DNA from: Myxococcales bacterium
GTDB taxonomy: Bacteria; Myxococcota; Myxococcia; Myxococcales; Anaeromyxobacteraceae
Assembly (NCBI GenBank): GCA_038320275.1
Contig: JBBQEB010000003.1
Coordinates: forward strand, 108-64,107
Reading direction: 5' to 3'
Length of the DNA: 64,000 nt
The first letter of the stretch is position 1; each line of letters starts with the position of its first letter. Below, piece after piece: positions 49,094-62,905 of this stretch. Below the pieces are notes generated by a model that was not told the DNA's origin, did no database searches, and saw nothing but the letters and a program-made list of their open reading frames with translations. The translations under genes and the position numbers were made by a program.

Positions 49094-50059
49094 TCAGCGC
49101 GCCACCGGCGCGGCGGCCGCCGCTGCCGGAGCCGCCGCCGAGCGAGAGTCACCTGCCTCCCTCCGCACCGCGATGACCGCGTTCGGGATCTCCCATGCGA
49201 GCCCGACAGCCTCGCCCTCGCCCGAGGCGCGCTCCAGGGCGCCGAGCCGCTCCACGTCGCGCCCTCCAGCGCGCACGAAGAGCTGCGCCTCCGGCCCCCC
49301 CTCCACGTACATGGCGCGGCGCAGGTCGATGGGCGCCGCGAGCAGCGCGTCCACGAGGTCGTGCACCGGCCAGGGCGCGCGCGCGTGCATGAAGAGGATG
49401 CGCCCGGCGCCGTCGATGCCGACCGCTGCGGTGCTCCTGCGCTTGGTGTCCGGCGCCCACACGTTCTTGCGCTCGCAGGAGACGAGCCGGATGGACTGGA
49501 TGAGGGTGCCGTAGCCCGAAGCCAGCGCATCCATGTCGCCACACTCGGCGTCGAGGATGCGCGCCGGCGGCAGCCCGGGCCGGAGCGGGTCGAAGGCGAG
49601 CACCGCCTTGAAGCGAGCGCTCCGGCGCGGGTTGTTCTGGTGCTCCCGCGTCCGCATGAGGCCGAGATTGGTGAGGCCGTCGGTCTGGAACATGCCGGCG
49701 TTGATGGCGGCCACCGCGCCGGTGGCAAGGGCCCAGCGCTTCACGGTGCGTGGACGCGCATCGCTTGCCGAGGCGTTGGCCAGCCGCAGCTCGAACCGGG
49801 CCGGGTCGAGCCGCGCGACCCACACGCGCGCATCGCCCGGAGAAGGTGCCGGACCGCGAAACGTGCCGACCTCGAGACCCGCTTCCAGGGAAGTCCAGGT
49901 TCCCTCCGGAGGGAGCGACGCCGCGGGGGCATCCTCGGCCACCTCCACCGGAGCCTGCGCGGGCTTGCTCTGCTGGCGGTCGCACGAGGCGAGCAGCGTC
50001 AGGGCAACGGCCGTGGAGGCGAGCCGGGAGGGATGGTGCACGGCCGGCCAGTATACCAA
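49094..50059 (-). CDS. Phosphodiester glycosidase (NAGPA/DUF2233) family lipoprotein
   Basis: LLASC lipobox; AAINAGMF, RSTAAVGID, AMYVEGGP. Confidence 0.75.
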   Translation of the reverse strand: MVYWPAVHHPSRLASTAVALTLLASCDRQQSKPAQAPVEVAEDAPAASLPPEGTWTSLEAGLEVGTFRGPAPSPGDARVWVARLDPARFELRLANASASDARPRTVKRWALATGAVAAINAGMFQTDGLTNLGLMRTREHQNNPRRSARFKAVLAFDPLRPGLPPARILDAECGDMDALASGYGTLIQSIRLVSCERKNVWAPDTKRRSTAAVGIDGAGRILFMHARAPWPVHDLVDALLAAPIDLRRAMYVEGGPEAQLFVRAGGRDVERLGALERASGEGEAVGLAWEIPNAVIAVRREAGDSRSAAAPAAAAAAPVAR

Positions 50060-50155
50060 GCCGGTCGAGGCCCCGATCCCCGCCGCCCGGCGTCGCGACT
50101 CTCCATCAGCACCCGCGATGAGCGGATCACCCGCGGTGCCTGGCGGCGTCGCCGC

Positions 50156-51244
50156 TCAGGGCGCCGCCTCCTGCGAGCTCCAGGCCGCCGTGTCGTCGAC
50201 CTGCTGGGCCAACCAGTCGTGGAGGCTCACGCCGACCGTGTAGCTGGCGGGGCGCCGGAGCAACGTGTGGCCAGCCCCCGCCACGAAATAGTGCTTCACG
50301 TTGGGTTGCGGATCCATGACCCGGTGCGCCGTGTCGAAGAGCGCGCCCGTGAAGGTGTCGGGCGAGATCAGGAAGAACAGAGGGATGGTGGTGTCGTGCA
50401 CGTAGGAGAGCAGGGACATGCGATCCTTCGGGTACTTGCGCGCGGCGGCGGCGAAGGCCTGGCCGAGGTCCGTCTTGCACTCCGGGCAAACGGAGGCGAG
50501 CGTGGAGTAGAGCCCCCAGGAGACGTCGAACGCGTCGGCCTGCGCGCGTCCGATCTCCGAGGCGAGGAGGGGCGGCCCGGAGTCGTCCACCACATACGAG
50601 GGCACGTGGGGCCAGTACGCCCGGAACGTGTCGTAGTTCGCGAGGGTGCCGAAGCCCCCCGCCGACGTGCCGCTCAGGACCACCTTGCCCGGTAGAGGAA
50701 AGGTGGGGGCGAGTCGCTTCATGAACGCGGCGAAGTTCTGGTGGCCGACGTGGTGGAAGGCGCGGGTGTCCGTCGCTGCGCCGCCCGGGAGCGTGACGGT
50801 GTACTGGGTCACCCGGTCGCCGGTGTGGACGTCGCCCGTGCAGTAGGGCACGTACACGAGCGTCCAGTCGCGAAAGGGATTGGCCGGGTCGGCGCGATCG
50901 AGCACACCGGTGAACGTCGCGGACTGAAGCGCCTGGAACTGAGCCTGGCCGAAGGGGCCCGGCGTCGTGATGAAGCCGGGCACGAAGCAGGTGCCGTAGG
51001 TCCAGCAGGCGCCGCCCCCCTCCAGGAAGACGAAGAGGTTTCCGCTGTCGCCGGGTGAGATGCCGATGCCGGTGGGCGATCCGTCCCCGCAGGCGCTGTC
51101 CGGAAAGTCGATCCAGGTCCAGGCGTTCTTCGCGAGGGCGCTGGCGGGAATGGCTTCGCCCATGGGCGGCGGGGTCGAGTCGCTCGATCCCCCGCAGGCG
51201 AGGAGCAGGGACAGGGTTGCGGCTGCGAGCGAACGGTGACGCAA
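50156..51244 (-). CDS. Pectin acetylesterase/Notum-like alpha/beta hydrolase lipoprotein
   Basis: LLLAC lipobox; CGDGSP, FLEGGGACW, VPYCTGDVH, GTSAGG. Confidence 0.8.
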   Translation of the reverse strand: MRHRSLAAATLSLLLACGGSSDSTPPPMGEAIPASALAKNAWTWIDFPDSACGDGSPTGIGISPGDSGNLFVFLEGGGACWTYGTCFVPGFITTPGPFGQAQFQALQSATFTGVLDRADPANPFRDWTLVYVPYCTGDVHTGDRVTQYTVTLPGGAATDTRAFHHVGHQNFAAFMKRLAPTFPLPGKVVLSGTSAGGFGTLANYDTFRAYWPHVPSYVVDDSGPPLLASEIGRAQADAFDVSWGLYSTLASVCPECKTDLGQAFAAAARKYPKDRMSLLSYVHDTTIPLFFLISPDTFTGALFDTAHRVMDPQPNVKHYFVAGAGHTLLRRPASYTVGVSLHDWLAQQVDDTAAWSSQEAAP

Positions 51245-51333
51245 GGTGAGGACCTCCTCGGTGAAACGCGGGGCCTCGAATGTAGGCCGTGGGTTCCGCC
51301 GCCGCCCGTCCGGCCGGGGAGTAGCATCGCCCC

Positions 51334-52125
51334 ATGCGCTCAGGGCCAGGTCGAGGTTTCCGCCGCAGGCTCGCCGTGGCGCTTCTCGCCCTGGCGTTCC
51401 TCGCGCCAGCCAGACCCGCCGAGGCCCGGCGGCGGCTCCCTCGCAAGGCGCATCCGGAGGGCAGCCTCGTGCTCGAGGGCAGGCCGACGCGCGTTCGCTG
51501 GACCGATGGCGACACCTTCAAGGTCCTCGATGGCCCGTTCGGTGGACTGCTCACGCGGCTCGACGGTTACAACACGCTCGAGAGCTATGGGCCGGTGCAC
51601 CGCTGGGGACGGTGGTCGCCCCCCGAGCTGCTGGCCCTGGCGCAGGAGGCGACGCGCTTCGCCGCCGCGGGCTCCTGGCACTGCACCAGCGCGGGCGCCG
51701 CCGACCGCTACCACCGACTGCTGGTGCGCTGTCCGGATGCGGCGCGCGCGCTCGTGCGCACGGGGCTCGCGATGGTCTATGCCGTCGACGCGGAAGCGAG
51801 GCCCGAGCTGCTCGCCGCGCAGCGGGATGCGCAGCGTGAGGGGCGAGGCATGTGGGCGAAGGGCGTGCCGCGCGGCATCGTGACGAACCTTCACTCGATC
51901 GTCGAGAACGGGGGAGAGGGCGCCTACGACCGCGTCGCGGACACGCGCACCGGACGTGCGATCGCCCGCCCGCACGAGCACGCGTACGCGATGTGCTCGG
52001 AGGTGTGTCAGGCCACCGAGGGCGACACGAGCTGCATGGTGTACGTCCCCTTCGAGCGCCGCTACCGCAACAAGCCGCCCTGCCTGCAGGGATCACCGGC
52101 GCGGCGGAAGCGGCAGGAGCGCTGA
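51334..52125 (+). CDS. Thermonuclease (SNase) family secreted nuclease
   Basis: WTDGDTF, RLDGYNTLE, DRYHRLL, LVRTGLA, AQREGRGMW. Confidence 0.85.
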   Translation: MRSGPGRGFRRRLAVALLALAFLAPARPAEARRRLPRKAHPEGSLVLEGRPTRVRWTDGDTFKVLDGPFGGLLTRLDGYNTLESYGPVHRWGRWSPPELLALAQEATRFAAAGSWHCTSAGAADRYHRLLVRCPDAARALVRTGLAMVYAVDAEARPELLAAQRDAQREGRGMWAKGVPRGIVTNLHSIVENGGEGAYDRVADTRTGRAIARPHEHAYAMCSEVCQATEGDTSCMVYVPFERRYRNKPPCLQGSPARRKRQER

Positions 52126-52995
52126 CGTCGTGCGCAGCTTCTCCGCCCAGGCAGGATGTCGCGACAGCATCCGACGATCCATCCACGGGATGCTCACGCC
52201 GAGGAACAGCGCGGAGATGGCGACGGCGCCGACGCCGCTCCACCACCACGAAGGGGCCGCGGCGAGCCCGAAGAAGAAGACACCCCACCAGAAGAGCACC
52301 TCGCCGAAGTAGTTGGGGTGCCGCGACAGGCGCCAGAGGCCGCTGTCGAGCACCGCCTCCGGATCTCGCCGGGTCCGGGTGAAGGCGCGGAGCTGCCGGT
52401 CGGCGAGCCACTCCACCATGACGGCCGCCGAGGTCACCACCGCCGCGGCGAGGTCGAGCAGGCCAAGCCGGCGCCCGGCCAAGGCGAGCGCCGGGTAGAG
52501 CGGCAGGAGGCCCAGGAACACCCAGACCGTCGGCATGAGGTGGATCGAGACGAGGCTCGCGGGCCAGTAGAGCCGGCCCGTCCTGGCGCGGATCTCCCGG
52601 TATCGAAAGTCCTCGTCCTCGAGCCCGCGCCAGCGGAGGAGCTGGTTTCCGGTGAGTCGCGCGCCCCAGGCGATCACCAGCGCGAGCACGAGGAGCTGGC
52701 GCAGGCCCGGACCGCCAGGGCGGAGCGCTGCCCAGTAGAGCGCGATGGGGAGGGGGGCCACGCTCCAGTACGGGTCGTACACGCTGGAGTTGTCGTGACG
52801 GACGCTGAAGAGGAAGACGACGCCGGTGGCGGCGAGATCGGCCACCGCCGCGGCGAGGATGGGGTGCCGGCCGCGCTGCGTGAGGCCGGCCGCGAGCCCC
52901 GCCAGGAGCGCCGCGCCGTAAGCCAGCGCGAGGACCCCCCGGCCGCGCCTGCCGGCCGCATCAGCCTCCCCAGGTTCCGCGCTGCGCCCGCTCAT
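52093..52995 (-). CDS. DUF1295 / steroid 5-alpha-reductase-like membrane protein
   Basis: NSSVYDPYWS, EDFRY, WLADRQL, GLWRLSRHPNYFGE. Confidence 0.88.
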   Translation of the reverse strand: MSGRSAEPGEADAAGRRGRGVLALAYGAALLAGLAAGLTQRGRHPILAAAVADLAATGVVFLFSVRHDNSSVYDPYWSVAPLPIALYWAALRPGGPGLRQLLVLALVIAWGARLTGNQLLRWRGLEDEDFRYREIRARTGRLYWPASLVSIHLMPTVWVFLGLLPLYPALALAGRRLGLLDLAAAVVTSAAVMVEWLADRQLRAFTRTRRDPEAVLDSGLWRLSRHPNYFGEVLFWWGVFFFGLAAAPSWWWSGVGAVAISALFLGVSIPWMDRRMLSRHPAWAEKLRTTSALLPLPPRR

Positions 52996-53777
52996 CCGTA
53001 GAGCCCGCGCGTCGCTCGCCCCATGAGCCGCACGGACGCCCGGCGGGTGAGCACCCGCCCGAAGAGGAAGGCGGTGATCCTGTTGAGCGCGCCGGGGATG
53101 GTCACCGGGCCGTGCCCCAGCCGCCGCAGCGCGCGCTCCGCCACCGCGTCCGGCTCCATGATGGGGACGCTCCGCTTCGGCTTCGACGCGAGGTAGGCAG
53201 GGGTCCGCACCGGCCCGGCGCGGCAGGCGAGGACGTCCACCCCGCGCTCCGCCAGCTCCACCCAGAGCCCCTCCGCCAGCACGAGGTCGAAAGCTTTGGA
53301 CGCGGCGTAGGACGCCACGTAAGCGGTGCCCTGGCCTCCCGCCAAGGACGCCATGAGGAGGATTCCCCCGCGCCCGCGCGCCGCCAGCCGGGCGCCCAGG
53401 AGGTAGCAGAGCACCACCGGACCGCGGCAGTTCACCTCCACCACGCGCAGGTGAGCCTCGAGCGGCGCATCGAGGAAGGGGCCGATGGCCGAGGCAGCCG
53501 CGTTGTAGACGAGCAGGCCCAGGTCGAGCCCGTCCACGAGGGCTGCAGCGCGCCCGGCGAGATCGGGCGCGGCGAGGTCGAGCGCAGCCGTGCGCACCTC
53601 CACCCCGTGCTTCGCCCGCAGCCGGGCCGCCAGCGCCTCCAGTGGCCCCGCCCGGCGGGCGACGAGCAGGAGGTTCAGTCCGCGGCCGGCGAGGAGCCGC
53701 GCGAAGGACTCGCCCAGACCCTCGGAGGCACCGGCGACGAGCGCCCAGGGGCCATAGCGATCCGCGAACGCGCTCAC
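52992..53777 (-). CDS. Short-chain dehydrogenase/reductase (17beta-HSD/KAR-like)
   Basis: RYGPWALVAGASEGLG, YNAA, YAASKAF; GTG start overlaps the upstream stop. Confidence 0.9.
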   Translation of the reverse strand: MSAFADRYGPWALVAGASEGLGESFARLLAGRGLNLLLVARRAGPLEALAARLRAKHGVEVRTAALDLAAPDLAGRAAALVDGLDLGLLVYNAAASAIGPFLDAPLEAHLRVVEVNCRGPVVLCYLLGARLAARGRGGILLMASLAGGQGTAYVASYAASKAFDLVLAEGLWVELAERGVDVLACRAGPVRTPAYLASKPKRSVPIMEPDAVAERALRRLGHGPVTIPGALNRITAFLFGRVLTRRASVRLMGRATRGLYG

Positions 53778-54310
53778 GCCGCCTCCAGGCCGGCAGCGCC
53801 CGCCGCCGGCTCCGTGAACGGATGGTGCGAGCGCGTCACCCGCCAGAGCACGAGGAAGGGCACCAGCAGCCAGGCGGCGTTCGAACCGATCGTCGCCCAC
53901 GGGTTCGGCGCGGCATGCACACCCTTCACCTCGTCGAAGAGGATGATGAAGACGTTCGTGAACATCATCGCCGCCCACAGGATGCTCGGCGTCCGGATCC
54001 AGTCGCGTCCACGCGCGTAGGCGAACAGCGCCGCCGCGTAGAAGGGGCCGAAGACGCAAACGTCGAGCCAGATGGTGGCGCGGTACCAGGCCGGGCGGGC
54101 GAGCAGCAGCGGGTCCCAGGTGCGCTCGTACCAGTGGATGAGCCGCAGGGCCGCCGCCGGCGGCCACACTGGCTGGGTGAAGTGGGCCGGGTCAGCGATG
54201 ACGATCTGCTCCAGGCTCACCACGTAGGAGATGAAGAACAGGTTCACCGCGAAGAACGCCAGCAACGCCACGTCCAGCGGTCGGCGCGAGAGCGGGATGG
54301 GGCGGCGCAT
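53774..54310 (-). CDS. EXPERA/emopamil-binding-protein family (sterol isomerase-like) membrane protein
   Basis: Four TM helices; WYERTWDPLL, WLDVCVFGPFY, NAAWLLVPFL..WR. Confidence 0.75.
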   Translation of the reverse strand: MRRPIPLSRRPLDVALLAFFAVNLFFISYVVSLEQIVIADPAHFTQPVWPPAAALRLIHWYERTWDPLLLARPAWYRATIWLDVCVFGPFYAAALFAYARGRDWIRTPSILWAAMMFTNVFIILFDEVKGVHAAPNPWATIGSNAAWLLVPFLVLWRVTRSHHPFTEPAAGAAGLEAA

Positions 54311-54360
54311 GGGCGCCAGGGTAGCGCGGATCTGCGCACGAGGCGCGCACGATGGAGGAC

Positions 54361-55084
54361 GAGGCTCGGGGGGAGGACGAGGCTCAGGGAAGGGCGAGGC
54401 TCACGGGGAGAACGAGCGAAGCGACGCAGCCGCGAACTGAGGTTGAAGGGACGACGCGGCTCACACGGGAGAACGAGGCTCACGGGAGAACGAGCGAAGG
54501 GCCCGTGCGTCCTGAGGAAGCGGAGCGCCCGGCCTGCGGACGGAACCGCTCCGGGGTCGGACCGCGTGCACGGTCCGTGACGCGGCAATCCAGCCGGGCA
54601 GGCATCGCCGCCCTGCGCGGCACGAAGGCCGTGCCAGCGGGGCCGCGCGCTCCGGCCGCCGCCCGTCAGGAGCCAGCCCGGAAGGCCGTCGCGGAGAGAG
54701 GAAGGAGGCACGGGCCCGAAGCGATGCAGCCGCGAGCCGAGGCTCACGGGAGAACGAGGCTCACGGGAGAACGAGCGAAGGGCCCGTGCGTCCTGAGGAA
54801 GCGGAGCGCCCGGCCTGCGGACGGAACCGCTCCAGGGTCGGACCGCGTGCACGGTCCGTGACGCGGCAATCCAGCCGGGCAGGCATCGCCGCCCTGCGCG
54901 GCACGAAGGCCGTGCCAGCGGGGCCGCGCGCTCCTGCCGCCGTCCGTCAGGGCCAGCCCGGAAGGCCGTCGCGGAGCGACGAAGGAAGCACGGGCCCGAA
55001 GCGATGCAACGGCGAGCCGAGGGGCCAGCCCGGAAGGCCGTCGCGGAGCGAGGAAGGAAGCACGGGCCCGAAGCGGTGCAGCCG
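54361..55084. repeat. Composite tandem repeat: two ~281-bp units plus sub-repeats
   Basis: Units start at 54464 and 54745; an extra ~62-bp copy near 55022-55083; about seven GAGGCTCACGGGAGAAC-like 17-mers. Confidence 0.9.
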
Positions 55085-55136
55085 CCATGGAATGCGTTCC
55101 ACGAGCACAGGGGCGAGGAGTAAGGTCCCGCCCTCG

Positions 55137-56336
55137 ATGGCACCCGATCCCCGCCGCCTCCGCATTGCCTTCGTCATCGACATCTTCGATGGCGTGAAGA
55201 CCGGCGGCGTCATCTCCGCCCAGCGCTTCGTGGCCGGGCTGCGCGAGCGGCACGACGTGGAGGTCATCACCACCGGCCCCGCAGGGCCCGGGCGGACCGA
55301 GCTGCCCGCCTTGCATCCACCCATCTTCCGCAAGCTCATGCGGGAGATGGGCTTCGTGTTCGCCCGCCCCCGCCGCCAGGTGCTGGAGGCCGCCTTCCGG
55401 CGCGCCGACCTCGTGCACGTCCAGTTCCCCTTCCTGCTCGGGATGCGCGCGGCCGCGCTCGCTCGCCGGATGGGAAAGCCGCTCGTCGCCGGGTTCCACG
55501 TTCAGCCCGAGAACATGCTGCGAAACGTCGGGCTGCCCTCGGAAGGCGCGCTGGTGGAGGGGCTCTACCGGCTCTTTTGCGCGCGCCTCTTCGACCTCGC
55601 CGACGCGGTGGTCTGCCCGAGCGCCTTCGCCAGGGACGAGCTCGTGCGGCGCGGGCTCCGCGTCCCGGCAGAGGTCGTCTCGAACGGCATCGACCCCAGG
55701 TTCACGCCCGGGCCAGCCCCCGAGGTCGCGGAAACCGGCGGCGAGGTCCTCGTCCTCTCCGTCGGCCGGCTCGCCCGCGAGAAGAGGCACGACGTCCTCA
55801 TCGAGGGGATCCGCCGCTCGCGCCACGCCGGCCGGGTGAGGCTCGTGGTGACCGGGCGCGGGCCAGAGGAGGCGCGGGTACGCGCCCTCGCGGCGACCCT
55901 GCCACTCCCAGCCCAGGTCACCTTCGTCACCGACGACGAGCTGCTCCGGCTCCTGCGCGCGGCGGACCTCCTCGTCCACGCCTCCGAGGTGGAGCTGGAG
56001 GGGATGGCGGTGCTGGAGGCGATGGGCTGCGGGACGCCCGCGCTCGTCGCGGATGCTCCGGCCAGCGCTTCCCCCTCCCTGGCGGCGGGGCCAGACTTCC
56101 TCTTCCGCCCCGGCGACGCCGGCGACCTCGCCGCGAAGCTCGACCACCTCCTCGACGACCCCGCCGCGCTCCCCGCGGCGCGCGCGCGCTGCCTCGAGCG
56201 CGCGCCCGCCTTCGCGCTGTCCGCCTGCGTCGCGAAGCTGGAGGCGCTCTACCTGCGCGTCGCCTCCGGGGAGGGGGTCAGCCCCCCGTCGGCCGCTCGC
56301 GCCGGACGATCCAGAGCGCCGCCGGCAGGGCGGTGA
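55137..56336 (+). CDS. GT4 glycosyltransferase, cholesterol alpha-glucosyltransferase (HP0421/CapJ)-like
   Basis: FARP..L..AF..AD.VH..FPFLL, GFHVQPEN, CPSAF..EL, SNGIDPRF, VGR..EK, HASEVELEGMAVLEA; recalled similarity to H. pylori CGT, not computed. Confidence 0.75.
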   Translation: MAPDPRRLRIAFVIDIFDGVKTGGVISAQRFVAGLRERHDVEVITTGPAGPGRTELPALHPPIFRKLMREMGFVFARPRRQVLEAAFRRADLVHVQFPFLLGMRAAALARRMGKPLVAGFHVQPENMLRNVGLPSEGALVEGLYRLFCARLFDLADAVVCPSAFARDELVRRGLRVPAEVVSNGIDPRFTPGPAPEVAETGGEVLVLSVGRLAREKRHDVLIEGIRRSRHAGRVRLVVTGRGPEEARVRALAATLPLPAQVTFVTDDELLRLLRAADLLVHASEVELEGMAVLEAMGCGTPALVADAPASASPSLAAGPDFLFRPGDAGDLAAKLDHLLDDPAALPAARARCLERAPAFALSACVAKLEALYLRVASGEGVSPPSAARAGRSRAPPAGR

Positions 56337-58566
56337 AGTCGGCCAGCATGGCGAGGAGGAAGGCCGCCGAGGTCACGACGCCGAACTGGCGCAGCGGGGG
56401 GAAGCTCGAAGCGGCGAGCCCCAGGAATCCGGCCGCGTTGATGAGGGTCGCGAAGACGATCGGGCGCCCCGACACCCGCAGCGTGTGCCGCAGCGCCGGC
56501 TCGAGCGATCGCGCGCCCTCCCGCTCCGCCTCGCCCAGGTGGTGGAAGAAGTGGATCTGGTCGTTCTCGGTGGTGCCGAGCACCGTGGTGGCGATGAGGA
56601 TGGTGGCCACGTTCAGGCTCGCGCCCACGAGCCGCATGCCGAGGAAGGTCGCGAGGATGGCGAAGAGGGACGGGATCATCGCCATGAGCCGCGCGCTCGG
56701 GCTCCTGAAGACGAAGAGGAAGGCGACGAAGATGAGCGCCGCGGTGATGGCAAAGCTCTGCGTCAAGGTGGGGACGAGGCTCGCCCCCACCTTGGCCTGC
56801 ACCATCGACTCGCCCACCACCTGCATCGAGGCGCCGCGAAAGGCCGGGTCCCCCGCCACGGTGCGCTCCCACGCGTCGGAGAGAGCGCGCGCGATGGCCC
56901 GATAGCCGACTTCGTCCCCGCCTCCGCGGAAGGTGACGGTGACCTGAGCGTTGGAGAGCGTCCCCACGTCGAGGAAGCCGCGCAGCTCCGGCTCGGACAG
57001 CAAGAGCCCCTCCACGTCGGCGGCGAGCGCCGCGAAGACCTCGGGATCCTGGGTGAGGCGGTCGCCCTGCCCCGCCAGGTAGCCGCGCAGTCGAAGGAAG
57101 GTGGTGGGCCCGACCACCGCGTTCACCCCGGGCAGCGTCTCCACCGCCGTCGTGAAGCGGTCGAGACCCCGCAGCACCTCCGGGTCGGCGGCGGCTCCCG
57201 GCGGCGTCTTCACCCAGACGCGCGCCACGTCGAGCCCGGACACGTGCTCCCGGAAGAAGAGCATGTCGCGGTGGATGGCGAGCGAGGGGTCGACGTAATC
57301 GAGAGCGTCCACCCCGACGCGCATGGGGGCGAGCCGCCCCGGGATGCCGAGGAGCGCCGCCAACCCGGCGGCCGACAGGGCGAGCGCGCCGACGAGCAGC
57401 GGCCAGCGCAGCCTGTACGTCAGGCGGGGCAGCGCGTCGGCGGCGCGGTCGTAGAGAGCGCTCCGCACCTGCACCGCGCGCCGGGTGGGCGTCCGGAGCA
57501 CCTTCTGCAGCGCTGGAAAGAGCGTGAGCGCGACCACCCAGGCGATGGCGAGCCCTGCCGCGGTCCAGAGGCCCATCTCGCGCACCGGCCGGATCTTGGA
57601 GACGCCGAGCGCGCCGAAGCCCAGCACCGCCGCGACTGCGGAGGCGGTCACCGGCAGCGCCTTGTTGGCGAGCGCCCAGGCCTGGTGCGCGTCCGTCGAG
57701 GTGCCCTCCGGCTGGTCGACGAACCGCGAGTGCAGGTAGACCAGGGTGGCGAGCGTCGTCACGAGGATGGTGAGGGGCACCAGCGCGGAGACGACGGTGA
57801 AGGAGAAGCCGAGGAGCCGGCCCACCCCCACGCCCAGCGCCACCGACGCCCCGAGCGCGAGCAGGATGGCGAGGAGCGAGCGCGGGGAGCGGTAGAGGTA
57901 GAGCGACAGCACGACCACGAGGAGCCCGAAGAGCGGGAACGAACGCACCGACGCGCTGCCCGAGGCGTGCTCGATCCAGGACTCGACGTAGGGCGCGCCG
58001 ACCTTGCGAAGCTCGCGCAGGCTCCCCCGCGGCGCCCGCGCCAGGGCAGCGTCGATCTGCGCCAGCACCTCGTCGCGCTCGCGGGCGCCGTGCACGTCGA
58101 GCCCGACCGGGATTCCGTGGAAGTGGTCGCCGACGAGTCCCTGCCGCCGGAAGAAATCCGCCCCGGTGGCGAAGCGGCGAAAGGCGGCGGCGCCCTCCGG
58201 CGTGGGCGCAAAGCCGGGGTGAGCCCGGCGGTAGACGTCGAGCGCCGAGTAGGGATGCGCGCGCGCCACGCTCCGCAGCGCGGCCTCGACGCCCTCGAGG
58301 TCGCGCAGCACCTCCGGGCGCCAGGGGTCGTCCGCCTCGAGGAGCAGGATGACCAGCGCGCCCTCCGGGAAGACGGTCTGGAACTCGCGGGTCGCGACGA
58401 CATCGGGATCGGAGGGGACCACCAGACGGTCGATCCCGCTCTCGGAAGCGATGCGCGTCGCGAGCAGGGCGGCCGCCGGCACGAGCAGCGCGTAGGCCAC
58501 CAGGATGGGAAACCGGGCCGCGACGACGGCGCGGAAGACGCGCTCGAGCGGGGAGGGGGCGGGCAC
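56278..58566 (-). CDS. MMPL/RND lipid transporter (BstA-like)
   Basis: Two periplasmic-loop/TM-bundle repeats; LGTTENDQIHF, GRPIVFATLINAAGF, SFPPLRQFG; GTG start inferred. Confidence 0.85.
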   Translation of the reverse strand: MPAPSPLERVFRAVVAARFPILVAYALLVPAAALLATRIASESGIDRLVVPSDPDVVATREFQTVFPEGALVILLLEADDPWRPEVLRDLEGVEAALRSVARAHPYSALDVYRRAHPGFAPTPEGAAAFRRFATGADFFRRQGLVGDHFHGIPVGLDVHGARERDEVLAQIDAALARAPRGSLRELRKVGAPYVESWIEHASGSASVRSFPLFGLLVVVLSLYLYRSPRSLLAILLALGASVALGVGVGRLLGFSFTVVSALVPLTILVTTLATLVYLHSRFVDQPEGTSTDAHQAWALANKALPVTASAVAAVLGFGALGVSKIRPVREMGLWTAAGLAIAWVVALTLFPALQKVLRTPTRRAVQVRSALYDRAADALPRLTYRLRWPLLVGALALSAAGLAALLGIPGRLAPMRVGVDALDYVDPSLAIHRDMLFFREHVSGLDVARVWVKTPPGAAADPEVLRGLDRFTTAVETLPGVNAVVGPTTFLRLRGYLAGQGDRLTQDPEVFAALAADVEGLLLSEPELRGFLDVGTLSNAQVTVTFRGGGDEVGYRAIARALSDAWERTVAGDPAFRGASMQVVGESMVQAKVGASLVPTLTQSFAITAALIFVAFLFVFRSPSARLMAMIPSLFAILATFLGMRLVGASLNVATILIATTVLGTTENDQIHFFHHLGEAEREGARSLEPALRHTLRVSGRPIVFATLINAAGFLGLAASSFPPLRQFGVVTSAAFLLAMLADFTALPAALWIVRRERPTGG

Positions 58567-58630
58567 GGGCGAAGGGTATACCCGGCCACAGCTCGTTGCG
58601 GGAGAAGGGGCTCCGAGGCATGGTGCGCGG

Positions 58631-59503
58631 ATGACGACCGCGCTCGCCACCGCACTCGCAGCCCTGCTCGCCGCCGCGCCCGCCGCCGGCTCCTCGAAGC
58701 CGGCCAAGCCCGCCAAGGCCATCGTGCCCCAGCTCACGACCATCGTGGCCTGTGCTCCGGGGTACCCCGGCACCACCGCCGAGGCCCAGCCCGGCATGAA
58801 CGCCTTCGCCGCGGCCGTGTCGAAGGCCGTTGGCCTACCGCCCACCTCGGTGAAGGCGCTCTACGTCCCCAGCGAGAAAGCCGGGCTCGCCCGCATGCAG
58901 CAGCCGGACGTCGGGGTCGCGCTGGTGACGCTTCCGTTCTACGTGGCGCACGCGGCCGAGCTCCGGCTCCAGCCGCAGCTCACCGTCGAGAACGAGGGCC
59001 GCGGGCCCTCCGAGAGCTGGACCTTGGTGGCCCGGAAGGGCGCGTTGAAGGACGCGGCCGGGCTCGCCGGCTTTCGCATCGAGTCCATCGCTGGCTACGC
59101 GCCCGGGTTCGTGCGGGCCGCGCTGGCCGGCTGGGGCGCGGTGCCGAAGGAGGTCCCCATCGCGCCCACCCGCAAGGTGCTCACCTCGCTGCGCCAGGCG
59201 GCCGGGGGCGAGAAGGTGGCCGTGCTGCTCGACGCAGGCCAGGCAGCCTCGCTCGCGAGCCTGCCCTTCGCGGGCGAGCTGGAGGTGGTGGCGAAGTCGG
59301 AGCCGCTGCCAGCCGCCCTGGTGTGCGTCCTCACGCCGAGGATGAAGCCCTCCAAGTTCCGGCCGCTGAGCGGTGCGATGCTGCGCGTGGCGGGCGATCC
59401 CGAGGGGGCGGCCGCGCTGAAGGGCATCCGCATGGTGCGCTTCGCGCCCCTCGACGCCGCCGTGCACGCCTCGCTGAGCAAGGTCATGGAAGCCTCGCGT
59501 TGA
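58631..59503 (+). CDS. PhnD/phosphonate-binding-like periplasmic protein (BstB-like)
   Basis: Signal peptide; PBP2-like pattern (APGYPG, LVARKG, AVLLD..Q, VVAKSEPLP); no cognate ABC genes adjacent. Confidence 0.65.
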   Translation: MTTALATALAALLAAAPAAGSSKPAKPAKAIVPQLTTIVACAPGYPGTTAEAQPGMNAFAAAVSKAVGLPPTSVKALYVPSEKAGLARMQQPDVGVALVTLPFYVAHAAELRLQPQLTVENEGRGPSESWTLVARKGALKDAAGLAGFRIESIAGYAPGFVRAALAGWGAVPKEVPIAPTRKVLTSLRQAAGGEKVAVLLDAGQAASLASLPFAGELEVVAKSEPLPAALVCVLTPRMKPSKFRPLSGAMLRVAGDPEGAAALKGIRMVRFAPLDAAVHASLSKVMEASR

Positions 59504-60300
59504 ACGGGAGGTGGGTGGCCCCGCTGACCGCGCTCGCCCTGGCGCTGGGCTGCGCGCACGCGCTTCCGCCAGCGCGGCCCGAGCCCGCGGCCGCGGCTCC
59601 TGCCGCGGGAGGCAGCGCCTCGGAGCTCCTGGCCCGCGCCGAGGCGCGCTGGGCGGGGCGGCCCGATCCGGCCGCGGTGGGCGAGGCGGAGGAGCTGTAC
59701 CTGGCCGCGGCCCGGGCGGATCCACGGGCGACGGGGGGCCTCGCCGGAGCGGTGAAGGTGAAGGCCTGGCGCGCGGAACGCGAGCGCGACGACGCGCGCC
59801 GCGCTGCCCTGGCGGAGGGCGCAGTGGAGGCCGGGCAGTGGTGCGAGGCGCGAGCGCCTGCGAGCGCGGAGTGCGCCTATGCGCTCGCGATCGGGCTCGG
59901 CCTGCAGGCGCGGGAGCGGCGGGGAACGGCGCTCGATGGCCTGAAGCTCATGGTTGCGAAGCTCCGTCAGGCAGAGGCGGCCGACCCGAGGCTGGACCGG
60001 GCCGGGCCTGCGCGCGTGCTGGCTCAGGTGCTGGCGCAGGCGCCGGGCTGGCCGCTCGGGCCCGGCGACACGGACGCGGCGGTGGAGGCGGCACGCCGGG
60101 CCGTGTCGCTCTTCCCCGACCACCCGCCCAACCAGCTCGCGCTGGCGCTCGCGCTCCAGAAGAACGACGAGCCCGGCGTCGCGCGCGCGGCGGCGGAGCG
60201 CGCGGTGGCGCTCGCGCGGGCGGCCCGGGACGAGCCCGACGCTGCAGGGTGGATCGAGGAGGGGCTGCGGCTCGCCGGCGGAGGGACGGACGAGAGCTGA
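59500..60300 (+). CDS. TPR/TatT-like lipoprotein (BstC-like)
   Basis: LALGC lipobox; CAYALAIGLG, AGPARVL, APGWPLGPGD, AVSLFPDHPPNQL; TTG start overlaps the upstream stop. Confidence 0.7.
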   Translation: MNGRWVAPLTALALALGCAHALPPARPEPAAAAPAAGGSASELLARAEARWAGRPDPAAVGEAEELYLAAARADPRATGGLAGAVKVKAWRAERERDDARRAALAEGAVEAGQWCEARAPASAECAYALAIGLGLQARERRGTALDGLKLMVAKLRQAEAADPRLDRAGPARVLAQVLAQAPGWPLGPGDTDAAVEAARRAVSLFPDHPPNQLALALALQKNDEPGVARAAAERAVALARAARDEPDAAGWIEEGLRLAGGGTDES

Positions 60301-60313
60301 CAGCGGTGTTAGC

Positions 60314-61117
60314 TCAGCTCACGCTCTCCGCGCTGTAGCGCGCCAGGAGCCCCGACCGCACCGCGCCGCGGTGGATTCGGACGAAGAAGAGGCAGGCGAG
60401 CGCGATGTACCCAGCGGCGAGGGCCGCTCCGGCCCCGAGCGCGGCAAAGGAGATGGGCTGGCCCGCCACCGCTGCGCGCAGCCCCTCGAAGACGTACGAG
60501 GGCGGCAGCGCCCGACCGACGAGCTGCATCCAGCGCGGCAGCGTGGCGAGCGGGTAGAACACCCCGGCGAAGGGGGAGAGCAGTGCGGGGATGGGCCAGA
60601 CCAGCCACTCCGAGGCCGGCCCGAGCCGCAGCACGAGCGCGCTCGCGAAGACGCCGAGCGCGATGCCGAAGAGGAAGAGCACGGCGAGGAAGGGCGCGAG
60701 CCCGAAGCCAACGGTCGAGTAGGAGAGCCCGAAGACCCCCGCCGCGAGCGCGAGCATGACCCCGAGGCCGACCAGGCTCGTCACCACGCTGGAGGCGACC
60801 AGGCCGGCCAGGTATTCACCGATGGTGATCGGGCTCGCGAAGAGGTTGAACAGGTTCCGCGACCAGACGTCCTCGAAGAAAGCCATGGTCACGCCCTGCA
60901 TGACCCGGCCAAAGAAATCCCACAGCAGGATGGCGCCCAGGAGCGTGGGGACGAAGCGGACGGTGGACGAGGCGATCGCGTCCAGGTAGCGGGTGATGAA
61001 GCCCCACAGGACGACGTCGATGGCGACCCAGGCGAAGAGCGGCACCAGCCGCGCAGGGCTGCTGCGGAGCAGATAGGCCTGCCGCAGCAGGATGGCGCCG
61101 GTGCGTTTCAGTCGCAT
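60314..61117 (-). CDS. ABC-2 type transporter permease
   Basis: FFEDVWSRNLFNLFASP, SPFAGVFYPLATLP, LPPSYVFEGLR; six TM helices. Confidence 0.88.
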   Translation of the reverse strand: MRLKRTGAILLRQAYLLRSSPARLVPLFAWVAIDVVLWGFITRYLDAIASSTVRFVPTLLGAILLWDFFGRVMQGVTMAFFEDVWSRNLFNLFASPITIGEYLAGLVASSVVTSLVGLGVMLALAAGVFGLSYSTVGFGLAPFLAVLFLFGIALGVFASALVLRLGPASEWLVWPIPALLSPFAGVFYPLATLPRWMQLVGRALPPSYVFEGLRAAVAGQPISFAALGAGAALAAGYIALACLFFVRIHRGAVRSGLLARYSAESVS

Positions 61118-62772
61118 GTGCGGGCCGACCTCTCGCCCGACGGCGCCGGGCTCGGGTCGCGCTCGCTCACGCCGTACTTCCGCAGCTTCCCCTGAAGCGT
61201 GGTGGGCTTGAGGCCGAGGAGCGCGGCCGCGCCCTGCGGGCCGTACACTCTGCCGCCGCTCGCGGTCAGCGCGTGGCCGAGGAGCTGCCGCACCTGCTCG
61301 TCGAAGCGCCCCGGGGCGCCCTCCGCGCTCCGCTCCGCGCCGGGACCTCCGCCACCTCCAGCGCGGCCGCCACCCAGAGCTTCGCCGGGTTCGGCCCGCC
61401 CGCGGCCCGGGGAGGGGAGCACGAGCTCGTCTCCCGGCGAGAGGATGAGCGCTCTCTGCAGGTAGTTCTCCAGCTCGCGCACGTTCCCGGGCCATTCGAG
61501 CGCCTCCAGCAACGGCCATGCGTCCTCGGAGACCCGGGGCGGCCGCCGGTGCATGAGCGCAGCGTGCCGGGCGAGGAAGTAGGACGCGAGCGGCCGGATC
61601 TCCGCCCGCCGGGCCCGGAGGGGGGGAAGTTCCAGCGGAAAGACCGCCAGGCGATAGTACAGGTCCGAGCGAAACGTGCCCGCCGCGACCATCGCCTCGA
61701 GGTCGCGGTTCGTCGCCGCGACCACGCGAACGTCCACCTGGACGGAGCCCCCGCCGCCCACGCGCTGGATCTCGCGCTCCTGCAGGACGCGCAGGAGCCG
61801 CACCTGCACCGATGGGGGTGCATCGCCCACCTCGTCGAGGAAGAGGGTCCCTCCCTCGGCCTGCTCGAAGCGCCCTGAGCGCCTCCGCACCGCTCCGGTG
61901 AATGCGCCCTTCTCGTGCCCGAAGAGCTCGCTCTCGATGAGGCTGTCCGGCACCGCGCCCAGGTTCACCACCACGAAAGGCGCGCCGAACCGTGGAGACA
62001 GGTCGTGCACCATCCGTGCGAGCCCCTCCTTCCCGGTCCCCGTCTCGCCGCGGATGAGCACGGTCGTCATCGACGGCGCCACCAGCCGCACCCGCTCGAG
62101 GACCCCCTTCATGCTCGGGCCCTCCGCGACGTAGCGCGCGTCGCGCTTCATCTGCCGGAGCTCCTCCTTGAGGAGCGTGTTCTCGCGGTCGAGGAGGCGG
62201 TTCAGGCGATGCACCTCCTCCACCATCAAGCTGTTGTGGAGGGCGATCGCGACGAGGTGCGCCACCTGCCGCGCCACCTGGAAGCAGCACTCGAGGAGCC
62301 CTTGCCGTGGGGGATGCGCAATGTCGAGCGCGCCCAGCGCCTCGCCCTCGAAGATCAGCGGAAAGGAGACGAGCGAGCCGTAGCCCAGCTCCGCCAGCCG
62401 GGGCTCCTCGCGAAAGCGCGGCCGATCCGCCAGGATCGGGTCCACGATGGTCGGCCGCCGCTCGGCGAGGGCGAGGCCTGCCGCCGAGCCAGCCAGCTCG
62501 AAGGTCCTGCCCACCTCGGTGGCCGGGTGGCGGGGATCGGAGACGAGCGCCACTCTCGCGGTGCCGGGCTCCCCCTCGACGAGGCGGTGGATCGCGACGC
62601 GGGTCGTCCCGAACCGCCGGTTGAGAAGGCGGCCGGTGCGCTCGAGCACTGCCTGCAGGTCGACCGTGGAGAGGACGGCCTCGATGGCCTCCTCGACGAT
62701 GCGCTGGTGCGGATCGTGGGCGGGATGAAGGACGGGGACATCACTGGGGAGAATGGGCAGGGGGAGGGGCAT
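61108..62772 (-). CDS. GAF-AAA-HTH sigma-54 enhancer-binding protein (FhlA-like)
   Basis: GETGTGKE, ESELFGHEKGAFTGA, LFLDEVG, WPGNVREL, C-terminal HTH. Confidence 0.95.
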   Translation of the reverse strand: MPLPLPILPSDVPVLHPAHDPHQRIVEEAIEAVLSTVDLQAVLERTGRLLNRRFGTTRVAIHRLVEGEPGTARVALVSDPRHPATEVGRTFELAGSAAGLALAERRPTIVDPILADRPRFREEPRLAELGYGSLVSFPLIFEGEALGALDIAHPPRQGLLECCFQVARQVAHLVAIALHNSLMVEEVHRLNRLLDRENTLLKEELRQMKRDARYVAEGPSMKGVLERVRLVAPSMTTVLIRGETGTGKEGLARMVHDLSPRFGAPFVVVNLGAVPDSLIESELFGHEKGAFTGAVRRRSGRFEQAEGGTLFLDEVGDAPPSVQVRLLRVLQEREIQRVGGGGSVQVDVRVVAATNRDLEAMVAAGTFRSDLYYRLAVFPLELPPLRARRAEIRPLASYFLARHAALMHRRPPRVSEDAWPLLEALEWPGNVRELENYLQRALILSPGDELVLPSPGRGRAEPGEALGGGRAGGGGGPGAERSAEGAPGRFDEQVRQLLGHALTASGGRVYGPQGAAALLGLKPTTLQGKLRKYGVSERDPSPAPSGERSARTCD

Positions 62773-62800
62773 GGTCGGTTCCTCGGTCCCGGCAAGGCGG

Positions 62801-62834
62801 CACCCAAATGCCGTTGTCACCCAAATACGGTTGC
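62801..62834. promoter_or_regulatory. Tandem 17-bp imperfect direct repeat, candidate enhancer (UAS)
   Basis: CACCCAAATGCCGTTGT followed by CACCCAAATACGGTTGC. Confidence 0.5.
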
Positions 62835-62905
62835 CAGCGCCACCGGAATATGGGTGCAAGCGCGGAGGATGGCTTCAAGCGCTTGGAATCTCGACCGTCG
62901 GGGTA

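Follow-up and report, generated by a model that had tools for sequence, protein, structure and literature searches.

Gene content and layout of the locus

Seven adjacent genes occupy positions 52093-60300 of the window, by which we mean the whole stretch of 64,000 nucleotides that was analyzed, and Pfam and NCBIfam searches place all of them in the families that a first-pass annotation had named (Table 1). Each gene is single-copy in the genome. Because the window DNA, at 73% GC, is rich in spurious open reading frames (one of 1415 aa lies on the plus strand at 56053-60300), reading frames were picked by third-position GC.

Table 1. Genes and repeat at the locus, in window coordinates
Feature	Position	Strand	Length	Evidence	Remark
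DUF1295 polytopic membrane protein	52093-52995	-	300 aa	Pfam PF06966, 156 bits	Third gene of EXPERA operon
Classical SDR, hydrophobic C-terminal tail	52992-53777	-	261 aa	Pfam adh_short, 102 bits	Second operon gene
EXPERA/EBP family four-helix membrane protein, TMEM97/sigma-2 type	53774-54310	-	178 aa	Pfam PF05241, 46 bits	First operon gene
Tandem duplication	54464-55022			Self-BLAST	Within 826-bp EXPERA-GT4 intergenic region
GT4 glycosyltransferase, lipid-acceptor type	55137-56336	+	399 aa	Pfam Glyco_transf_4 and Glycos_transf_1	
RND transporter, HAE3/MMPL type, sterol-sensing-domain-like region	56278-58566	-	~762 aa	Pfam MMPL, 66 bits; Sterol-sensing, 31 bits	Start codon approximate
Periplasmic PhnD-fold binding protein, BstB-like, signal peptide	58631-59503	+	290 aa	Pfam Phosphonate-bd, 39 bits	ATG start checked
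TPR lipoprotein, BstC-like, lipobox LALGC	59500-60300	+	266 aa		TTG start overlapping BstB stop, checked

Rather than one operon, the genes form four transcription units, namely EXPERA-SDR-DUF1295, the GT4 gene, the RND gene and BstB-BstC. The first is an operon whose genes are translationally coupled through GTGA and ATGA overlaps, the latter joining the DUF1295 start to the SDR stop. The GT4 gene shares 59 bp with the 3' end of the RND gene, which converges on it, and the two genes also converge and overlap in five related loci (L001, L004, L008, L012, and L026). The BstB-BstC pair, coupled via TTGA, diverges from the RND gene across ~64 bp.

The tandem duplication between the EXPERA and GT4 genes consists of two copies of a 279-bp unit (54464-54742 and 54745-55022, 96.8% identity) and contains 17- to 18-bp sub-repeats, and a ~60-bp piece of the unit has extra copies nearby (54668-54733, 54950-55008, and 55020-55085). 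Self-BLAST against the whole genome found no copies elsewhere. The duplication coincides with the point where gene order departs from that of relatives.

Relatives of the encoded proteins

A profile of 22 EXPERA orthologues retrieved only the bovine sigma-2 receptor from the PDB (E 1.2e-11), and the predicted structure (pLDDT 70) aligned with TMEM97 (PDB 7m93-7m96 and the cholesterol-bound 7mfi) at TM 0.62-0.69, compared to TM 0.5-0.59 and 16-17% identity for EBP (6oht and 8w0r). By profile and model, therefore, the window protein is closer to TMEM97 than to EBP; its earlier assignment to the EXPERA family stands, while the EBP-like label does not, and any delta8-delta7 isomerase role is putative. 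With TMEM97 it has in common an EXPERA fold of four helices, the DPLL...PAW motif and conserved acidic residues. The invariant acids are D66 (in DPLL), D83 and E34, and the first two align with D56 and E73 of TMEM97, a protein for which we know of no proven enzymatic activity. In contrast to TMEM97, the window protein is bacterial and only 25% identical to it, and its gene is always coupled to an SDR gene and often to a DUF1295 reductase gene. In some relatives (loci L001, L008, L012, and L026) EXPERA, SDR, DUF1295 and a sterol-sensing-domain-like RND pump are fused into a single operon, an arrangement that recalls the reported partnership of TMEM97 and NPC1.

The SDR gene lies directly downstream of the EXPERA gene in most of 82 related loci, across phyla. 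Top matches of SDR proteins are notoriously unspecific, and those of the window protein are mycolate reductase (117 bits) and 7beta-HSDH (104 bits) in NCBIfam, both far below their cut-offs, and 5fyd/5gt9 in the PDB (114 bits), presumably the Collinsella 7beta-hydroxysteroid dehydrogenase. The DUF1295 protein carries RHPNYFGE, an instance of the C-terminal RHPNYxGE motif that it shares, together with a polytopic fold of the steroid-reductase/ICMT superfamily, with SRD5A2 (7bw1) and MaSR1 (4quv). Its AlphaFold model (pLDDT 90) is best matched by the delta14-sterol reductase 4QUV (TMq 0.49), followed by ICMT and SRD5A2; by sequence, it had no match in the PDB and none to Pfam Steroid_dh or ERG4_ERG24, and the relation to sterol reductases is at clan level only, with TM values below 0.5.

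For the GT4 protein, a proposed kinship with HP0421 was borne out, as CapJ (3qhp) is by far its best match among solved structures, scoring 88.6 bits where the next entry reaches 35.5. CapJ is the product of the CGT gene, the cholesterol glucosyltransferase of H. pylori (PMC10489377). The match spans only the C-terminal sugar-donor domain and therefore carries little information on the acceptor, and the cholesterol alpha-glucosyltransferase is the closest solved relative as far as the donor domain is compared.

The remaining three genes resemble those of BstA/BstB/BstC, the sterol transporter of Methylococcus capsulatus (Zhai et al., eLife 2024, PMC10942540; PDB 7t1m and 7t1s), in combining an RND pump of the inner membrane with a PhnD-fold binding protein in the periplasm and a TPR lipoprotein of the outer membrane, and in being tied to triterpenoid biosynthesis genes in relatives. 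The analogy, drawn in the first-pass annotation, holds for two of the three components: BstB and BstC are the only NCBIfam matches of the respective proteins, remote with scores of 55 and 81 bits where the cut-offs are 350, and also their best PDB matches (7t1m, MCA1014, E 1.9e-12 over the full length, and 7t1s, E 1.8e-13). It does not hold for the pump, which is of HAE3 type (147 bits), had no match to the NCBIfam BstA model and is transcribed divergently. Further differences are that the partner genes in sister genomes are hopanoid (shc) rather than sterol genes and that no cyclase was found in the window genome.

Sterol-sensing-domain matches are generic among HAE3/MMPL pumps. The window pump resembles HpnN, which transports hopanoids in Rhodopseudomonas and Burkholderia, in being an RND pump with a genetic link to shc/hopanoid clusters and in its presumed role of bringing triterpenoids to the outer membrane. 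It scores 71 bits against the HpnN models, but this is far below their cut-offs (751 and 1100 bits), and HpnN is without the BstB- and BstC-like partners that the window pump has. Taken over all seven proteins, each link to sterols is a remote or top-match similarity.

Co-inheritance, hopanoid clusters and cyclase genes

The seven-gene set is found again, in several arrangements, in at least 11 other loci of Anaeromyxobacteraceae, and since the same genes stay together through such shuffling, their clustering is not due to chance. Co-conservation, in support of the earlier interpretation, is also apparent in a co-occurrence profile of 81 genomes of the family, where 29 of the 31 genomes with EXPERA carry the trio (scored by its BstC-like gene) and 29/31 carry GT4, an association that holds genome-wide even where the genes are unlinked. 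The EXPERA-SDR core is not peculiar to this locus, as it occurs widely in other phyla.

The transporter trio is an independent module. In sister genomes it is embedded in hopanoid/isoprenoid clusters (shc, sqs, idi, ispA, and dxs), lying 6-11 kb from shc in seven genomes, and in one genome of the same genus as the window (G013) BstC and BstB sit between idi-sqs-shc and ispA-dxs. The window pump is orthologous (61-73% identity) to the pumps beside these shc clusters, and the orthologous pumps of SHC-linked loci are interleaved with those of EXPERA-linked loci.

In the 81-genome profile, the trio is present in 19/19 genomes with SHC, and only two genomes have both SHC and EXPERA; among trio-bearing genomes, the EXPERA module and SHC are nearly exclusive. 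Only six genomes have the trio without SHC or EXPERA, five of them being at most 87% complete, and the 29 trio-less genomes include none with SHC and two with EXPERA. Within one genus (g8), SHC or EXPERA is found in 12/12 trio-positive genomes versus 0/14 trio-negative ones. Naive Fisher tests on the profile gave p values of 8e-7 and 1.6e-13, the significance of which is overstated by the kinship of the genomes. In four genomes (G006, G018, G026, and G058), GT4 and the BstC-like gene are present and SHC and EXPERA were not detected; in the last two, both genes lie ~3-4 kb apart on one contig, with window-like spacing. Among Myxococcota outside the family, all eight genomes with an EXPERA-family match have an OSC, versus 54 of 185 overall.

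In agreement with the earlier reading of the window, no SHC/OSC, squalene epoxidase or ERG4/24 was found in its genome (an assembly of 343 contigs, 90.7% complete), nor a cyclase or squalene epoxidase in five other genomes with the full cluster, which makes scavenging the natural reading. Likewise, 29 of the 31 EXPERA-positive genomes in the profile are without any SHC/OSC-type cyclase, and a 16-genome sample of the family plus the window genome yielded no OSC-grade match, the five cyclase matches reaching only ~280 bits versus >600 for a true OSC.

Proposed function and alternatives

Because the organism has no sterol or hopanoid synthesis, yet keeps a co-inherited gene set that resembles sterol-handling genes, we propose that this soil myxobacterium probably takes up external sterol-like lipids, remodels them and places them in its envelope. 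The genes would then constitute a modular system for a polycyclic triterpenoid, most likely a sterol from the environment, and we give an even chance to the full proposition that the locus serves to remodel, glycosylate and export a scavenged sterol-like lipid as a substitute for hopanoids. The earlier interpretation is thereby partly supported; the sterol substrate is one that we infer entirely, as we do every reaction and the direction of transport. An exogenous sterol would partition into the envelope and reach the inner membrane, where the products of the coupled EXPERA-SDR-DUF1295 operon would remodel its ring system, our specific guess being a sterol-to-stanol route. The SDR would oxidize the 3-OH and later re-reduce it, the TMEM97-like protein would hold the sterol and shift the double bond, and the DUF1295 protein, with its 5-alpha-reductase fold, would saturate the shifted bond with NADPH. 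The cholesterol-glucosyltransferase-like GT4 could then put a sugar on the 3-OH at the cytoplasmic face, and the HAE3 RND pump might hand the product to the BstB-like carrier in the periplasm, from which it would reach the BstC-like lipoprotein of the outer membrane. The trio of sister genomes is predicted to carry hopanoids of the cell's own making, for which the scavenged, tailored lipid would be the substitute in the window organism. What is new is the joining of an EXPERA-SDR/DUF1295 module and a hopanoid-linked trio with a cholesterol-glucosyltransferase-like GT4, as well as the near exclusion of the EXPERA module and SHC.

The substrate of the EXPERA-SDR pair could also be a common bacterial lipid. 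The pair stands alone, with no cyclase, transporter or GT4 nearby, in genomes of Bacteroidota, Actinomycetota and Chloroflexota, and ten genomes from other phyla have it but no cyclase. It is possible, if on the unlikely side, that the locus acts on an endogenous non-cyclized isoprenoid or other membrane lipid (polyprenol, carotenoid, or acyl lipid), with SDR and DUF1295 forming a keto/enoyl or polyprenal reductase pair, EXPERA acting as a lipid-presenting partner, and the trio exporting a GT4-made glycolipid to the outer membrane. DHRSX and SRD5A3 are a comparable reductase pair in eukaryotic dolichol synthesis. The cyclase-free window genome has carotenoid-type genes and ispA/dxs, genes for a polyprenyl synthetase, a PAP2 phosphatase and an Omp85-like protein lie among those of the trio in one genus (g7), and the top NCBIfam matches of GT4 are lipid glycosyltransferases of the diacylglycerol/phosphatidylglycerol type (GlcN-PG synthase and IagA/BgsA); that the kinship of DUF1295 with sterol reductases goes no further than clan level also fits. 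However, an endogenous lipid would leave unexplained the near exclusion of the EXPERA module and SHC, the presence of an OSC in every extra-family genome with an EXPERA match, and the much greater closeness of GT4 to CGT than to other solved GT4 enzymes.

Improbable, in our view, is that rearrangement joined three unrelated neighbors, namely a generic hydrophobe efflux pump with accessories, a polysaccharide glycosyltransferase and a stress-related membrane redox operon. The four transcription units and the unique tandem repeat at the rearrangement junction agree with it, as do the modules of one genus (g9), which are separated by ~140 kb or lie on different contigs, the lack of a GT4 beside the trio in the 12 trio loci retrieved that are EXPERA-less or unlinked, and the frequent occurrence of EXPERA-SDR alone. 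Against this, the clustering survives several independent reorderings and is a single operon in some loci, and EXPERA keeps company with the trio and with GT4 even where unlinked.

We are highly doubtful that EXPERA is a new membrane class-II-type cyclase/isomerase that acts by protonating a linear isoprenoid at a double bond and yields an endogenous polycyclic replacement for hopanoids, to be finished by SDR, DUF1295 and GT4 and exported by the trio. It would make an exogenous supply unnecessary and account for two nearly exclusive partners of an orthologous transporter, and the invariant acids, which are buried, would suit the kind of acid-base chemistry that EBP performs on C=C bonds. But no squalene-type precursor pathway is evident in the window genome, whose only SQS_PSY gene adjoins a lycopene-cyclase-like gene, and the co-occurrence of the EXPERA family with OSC in other Myxococcota fits a protein that acts on sterols rather than replaces them; we know of no EXPERA protein that cyclizes anything. 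Part of a de novo sterol pathway, of a kind that other Myxococcota have, with its cyclase in the unassembled remainder of the fragmented genome, is hardly credible given the missing cyclase, squalene epoxidase and ERG4/24 genes here and the cyclase results for the five full-cluster genomes, the 16-genome sample and the EXPERA-positive genomes.

For the tailoring of a scavenged sterol-like lipid, H. pylori offers a likeness beyond its GT4 enzyme, as it is also unable to make sterols and tailors scavenged cholesterol. The window host differs in being a free-living soil bacterium, and its GT4 gene in overlapping a convergent RND gene.

Gene content and arrangement of the locus

The seven adjacent genes that the first-pass annotation had placed at 52093-60300 are real genes, their frames having been tested against Pfam and NCBIfam, and all are single copy in the genome. 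Since the DNA of the window has a GC content of 73% and is rich in spurious long ORFs, frames were picked by codon-position GC before being checked against the two collections; a 1415-aa plus-strand ORF at 56053-60300 and several other large ORFs were discarded on codon-position GC as high-GC artefacts. What the annotation had called a single locus is made up of four transcription units. The EXPERA, SDR, and DUF1295 genes form a translationally coupled minus-strand operon with stop/start overlaps GTGA and ATGA, and the BstB-like and BstC-like genes are coupled via TTGA.

Features of the locus, in window coordinates
Feature	Position	Strand	Remarks
DUF1295	52093-52995	-	156 bits
Classical SDR	52992-53777	-	Middle gene of the EXPERA operon
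EXPERA	53774-54310	-	PF05241, 46 bits
Intergenic region with repeat	54311-55136		826 bp between the EXPERA operon and GT4
GT4 glycosyltransferase	55137-56336	+	
RND gene	56278-58566	-	Pfam MMPL and sterol-sensing domain; NCBIfam HAE3, 147 bits
PhnD-fold periplasmic protein (BstB-like)	58631-59503	+	
TPR lipoprotein (BstC-like)	59500-60300	+	Lipobox LALGC

The GT4 and RND genes are convergent and their 3' ends overlap by 59 bp (56278-56336), an overlap that is conserved in the related locus L001 (40 bp) and in further loci, and it is possible that transcriptional interference or antisense coupling ties the two genes together. The RND and BstB-like genes diverge from starts only about 64 bp apart (58567-58630), and locus L083 has a similarly tight spacing of about 62 bp. 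The two promoters must overlap one another or extend into coding sequence, a hint that the genes are regulated jointly. Sigma-54 promoter boxes sought near the locus gave chance-level matches only. An unannotated 268-aa ORF at 60314-61117 (-), which reads in translation as a candidate ABC-2-type permease, converges on the BstC-like gene and comes after a gene for a GAF/sigma-54 activator (61108-62859, -) that it overlaps by 10 bp, and immediately upstream of EXPERA-SDR in locus L002 is a sigma-54 two-component pair. Upstream of the island, two neighbouring genes at 49094-51517 (-) match the Pfam families NAGPA phosphodiester glycosidase and pectinacetylesterase (PAE, Notum family), both of which are eukaryote-typical.

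Comparison with 80 genome loci collected with an EXPERA profile and two metagenome contigs places this arrangement among its relatives. Most of these loci carry the EXPERA-SDR pair, in Myxococcota, Bacteroidota, Actinomycetota, Chloroflexota, and one Beijerinckiaceae genome bin; in Anaeromyxobacteraceae and genome bins related to them DUF1295 is a third member, and the full seven-gene set occurs, in varied gene orders, in about 11 Anaeromyxobacteraceae loci. In L001, L004, L008, L012, and L026, EXPERA, SDR, DUF1295, and RND form a single operon with a convergent GT4 behind it. The window shows a rearranged version of this L001-type order with a unique tandem repeat at the junction. Two 279-bp units of 96.8% identity (54464-54742 and 54745-55022) sit exactly where the gene order differs from that of the relatives, in which GT4 and RND are found as a block on the far side of DUF1295, and near the two units are extra copies of a piece of about 60 bp as well as 17-18-bp sub-repeats. 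A whole-genome self-comparison found no further copy, which rules out a dispersed mobile element; the repeat may be a rearrangement scar or a regulatory array.

One transporter shared by hopanoid genes and the EXPERA module

As partners of one orthologous transporter, the trio of RND pump, BstB-like protein, and BstC-like protein, for which the BstC-like gene serves as marker, squalene-hopene cyclase (SHC) and the EXPERA module nearly exclude each other. Among the 81 family genomes sampled, EXPERA was found in 31, the BstC-like gene in 52, a GT4-like gene in 41, and SHC in 19. The 52 genomes with the trio divide into 17 with SHC only, 27 with EXPERA only, 2 with both, and 6 with neither, five of these last six being at most 87% complete, while the 29 genomes that lack the trio include none with SHC and 2 with EXPERA. 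Naive Fisher tests on this pattern give p values of 8e-7 and 1.6e-13, which, given the relatedness of the genomes, make it look more significant than it is. The pattern nevertheless recurs inside single genera: in g8, SHC or EXPERA is present in 12 of 12 trio-positive genomes versus 0 of 14 trio-negative ones. As a qualification, in four genomes GT4 and the BstC-like gene are present and neither SHC nor EXPERA was detected.

The trio keeps its divergent RND and BstB-BstC arrangement in genomes that lack EXPERA, and its marker is present in all 19 SHC-positive genomes, seven of which have shc only 6-11 kb away. G013, which belongs to the same genus as the window, has Caroten_synth, SHC, SQS, an unassigned ORF, Idi, another unassigned ORF, BstC, BstB, and then divergent IspA and Dxs, in that order. 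In genus g7, genes for a polyprenyl synthetase, a PAP2 protein, and an Omp85-like protein are interspersed among those of the trio, and shc is adjacent. Two g7 loci, L085 (11348-14486) and L087, have genes for the polyprenyl synthetase, the Omp85-like protein, and a PAP2_3 phosphatase/phosphotransferase between BstB and RND, again with shc near, which makes up a little-studied set of isoprenoid-lipid genes. A maximum-likelihood tree interleaves SHC-linked and EXPERA-linked RND pumps as orthologues of 61-73% identity. These ties to shc in sister genomes, together with the interleaved orthologues, point to a hopanoid-class triterpenoid as the cargo that the trio probably carried ancestrally. A separate transporter lineage arriving with the EXPERA module was also considered and dropped, as the RND tree holds no deep SHC-linked or EXPERA-linked clades.

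The likeness to the Methylococcus BstA/B/C proteins proposed in the first-pass annotation needs dividing: two components are homologues, and the pump is without a BstA match. The BstB-like protein has BstB (NF045601) as its sole NCBIfam match (55.4 bits, E 5e-15, short of the equivalog cut-off of 350) and Methylococcus 7t1m as its best PDB match, over its full length (E 1.9e-12), and on these profile comparisons we class it as a BstB homologue and not an equivalog. BstC (NF045602) is likewise the sole NCBIfam match of the BstC-like lipoprotein (81.1 bits, E 8.5e-23, below the 350-bit cut-off), and Methylococcus 7t1s is its best PDB match (E 1.8e-13). The BstA model NF045600 is absent from the NCBIfam matches of the RND pump, and a search of the entire genome with it found nothing; the best family of the pump is HAE3 (TIGR00921), and it falls below both HpnN cut-offs (71 versus 751 bits for TIGR03480 and 34 versus 1100 bits for NF052374). 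The genomic setting also differs from that of BstABC, in that the window's genome has no oxidosqualene cyclase (OSC) and the trios of sister genomes adjoin shc, sqs, idi, ispA, and dxs. The BstC cluster has been described as taking in some deltaproteobacterial sequences (PMC10942540).

Resemblance of the tailoring proteins to sterol-handling proteins

The EXPERA protein, which had been called EXPERA/EBP-like, is retained in the EXPERA family (46.1 bits versus a Pfam gathering score of 25.7) and in its four-helix fold, and by both profile and fold comparison its nearer relative appears to be TMEM97 and not EBP. A profile of 22 EXPERA orthologues has the bovine sigma-2 receptor (TMEM97) as its only PDB match (E 1.2e-11) and no sequence match to EBP chains. 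A predicted structure of moderate quality (pLDDT 70) matches TMEM97 entries 7m93 and 7mfi, the latter being cholesterol bound, with Foldseek TM scores of 0.62-0.69 at a probability of 1.0; EBP comes second in the same model, at TM 0.5-0.59 and 16-17% identity. The invariant residues D66 (in DPLL) and D83 align with D56 and E73 of TMEM97, in human numbering. The catalytic residues of human EBP are His76, Glu80, Glu122, and Trp196.

The best solved relatives of the SDR are 5fyd and 5gt9, which we take to be Collinsella 7beta-hydroxysteroid dehydrogenase, and its top NCBIfam families are mycolate reductase and 7beta-HSDH. For DUF1295, a sequence search of the PDB gave no relative; its model is good (pLDDT 90) and it carries RHPNYFGE, a candidate C-terminal NADPH-site motif. 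Its best fold matches are delta14-sterol reductase 4QUV, ICMT, and SRD5A2, all with TM below 0.5. The Foldseek probability is 1.0, but TMq is 0.44-0.49 to 4quv and 7bw1, and the methyltransferase ICMT scores alike.

For GT4, the proposed likeness to H. pylori HP0421 was borne out in the sugar-donor domain, to which the comparison is limited because the best solved relative, 3qhp ("CapJ" of H. pylori), spans only that domain: it scores 88.6 bits versus 35.5 for the next GT4 structure. CapJ is the H. pylori cholesterol alpha-glucosyltransferase gene (PMC10489377). Among solved GT4 enzymes, our GT4 is therefore, as judged by donor-domain sequence, closest to the HP0421-like CGT.

Nature of the lipid and wider implications

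The first-pass annotation had suggested searching the rest of the genome for sqe, osc, and shc, and none was found: the window's genome, assembled to 90.7% completeness in 343 contigs, lacks SHC and OSC, squalene epoxidase, and ERG4/24, and the cyclase is also absent from five other full-cluster genomes. De novo sterol synthesis was accordingly rejected for the genome searched, and a hidden pathway of this kind is hardly credible. Outside the family, an OSC-grade cyclase is present in 8 of 8 EXPERA-hit Myxococcota genomes versus 54 of 185 overall (naive p ~4e-5, from 6 genera). Ten genomes of other phyla carry EXPERA-SDR and lack any cyclase. Considered with the protein resemblances described above, these data are most simply explained if the EXPERA module works on sterols, which sterol-producing myxobacteria would make themselves and other carriers would scavenge. 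In cyclase-less Anaeromyxobacteraceae, the tailored and glycosylated product would travel on a former hopanoid carrier. To this reading we give an even chance of being right.

We tentatively extend this sterol reading to a fuller scenario, which is possible rather than probable: free-living soil Anaeromyxobacteraceae that lost hopanoid synthesis would take up sterols of eukaryotes or sterol-making bacteria, a complex of TMEM97-like, SDR, and 5-alpha-reductase-like proteins would reshape or saturate the rings, a Helicobacter-type glucosyltransferase would add a sugar, and the ancestral hopanoid carrier would deliver the product to the outer membrane. Our guess at the chemistry, inferred throughout, is a conversion of sterol to stanol in which the SDR would serve as 3-OH dehydrogenase and 3-keto reductase, EXPERA would shift or hold the double bond, and DUF1295 would act as 3-oxo-delta4 5-alpha-reductase; the 3-OH would then be glucosylated and the product exported by the RND pump.

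Foremost among the alternatives is a pathway for a polyprenol, carotenoid, or acyl lipid that the cell makes itself, which we consider rather unlikely. The sole SQS_PSY gene of the genome adjoins a lycopene-cyclase-like gene, on contig C175 (1015-5297), where a small histidine-rich membrane protein is encoded beside the lycopene-cyclase-like flavoprotein. This cluster is probably a carotenoid cluster, so C40 isoprenoids would be made and squalene-derived lipids apparently not.

That the modules are unrelated neighbours is improbable. Within the family, 29 of 31 EXPERA-positive genomes have the BstC-like gene and 29 of 31 have GT4, even where the genes are unlinked (genus g9), so that co-conservation, proposed earlier as a check on the locus, held. 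A search for conserved genes next to EXPERA-SDR, both in other phyla and in OSC-positive Myxococcota, gave nothing recurrent or sterol specific. An EXPERA protein acting as a new cyclase that yields a hopanoid surrogate seems very improbable.

Our literature search found no account of bacterial EXPERA operons or of the seven-gene combination, and nothing relevant on bacterial EXPERA or DUF1295 in connection with sterols. New here are the joining of an EXPERA module and a hopanoid-linked trio with a cholesterol-glucosyltransferase-like GT4, and the near-exclusive distribution of the EXPERA module and SHC around one orthologous transporter. To our knowledge, bacterial sterol scavenging and glycosylation are known only in host-bound organisms such as Helicobacter, Borrelia, and Mycoplasma. 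If the sterol reading is true, these soil bacteria would offer a genetically defined free-living system as evidence that natural membranes can contain sterols in place of hopanoids, stanol, steryl glycoside, and hopanoid biomarkers would become harder to interpret, and the widespread, uncharacterised BstB/BstC/HAE3 carrier system would gain a likely cargo class.

TMEM97 (the sigma-2 receptor) is a drug target in humans, and as far as we know its biochemical role has yet to be settled. If the sterol reading is true, the operon would provide a tractable bacterial model for it. Under the fuller scenario, the bacterial homologue would handle the sterol within a reductase complex that works with an RND protein bearing a sterol-sensing-domain-like region; such an arrangement would parallel the TMEM97-NPC1 axis in a prokaryote and hint at what the receptor did originally. 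The near-exclusion of SHC and EXPERA is a concrete prediction that is cheap to test. Cultured Anaeromyxobacter terrae SG22, identified through agreement of contig coordinates with G059, one of the two genomes with both EXPERA and SHC, carries the EXPERA operon, the BstC-like gene, and GT4, and the predictions are therefore testable at the bench.

Three loci of OSC-positive, sterol-producing Myxococcota (L099, L100, and L101) encode EXPERA homologues of lower similarity (28-37% identity), which could be the bacterial sterol C-8 isomerases that have yet to be assigned; the one in L101 adjoins a 3beta-HSD/epimerase-type extended SDR and the one in L099 adjoins DUF4166.
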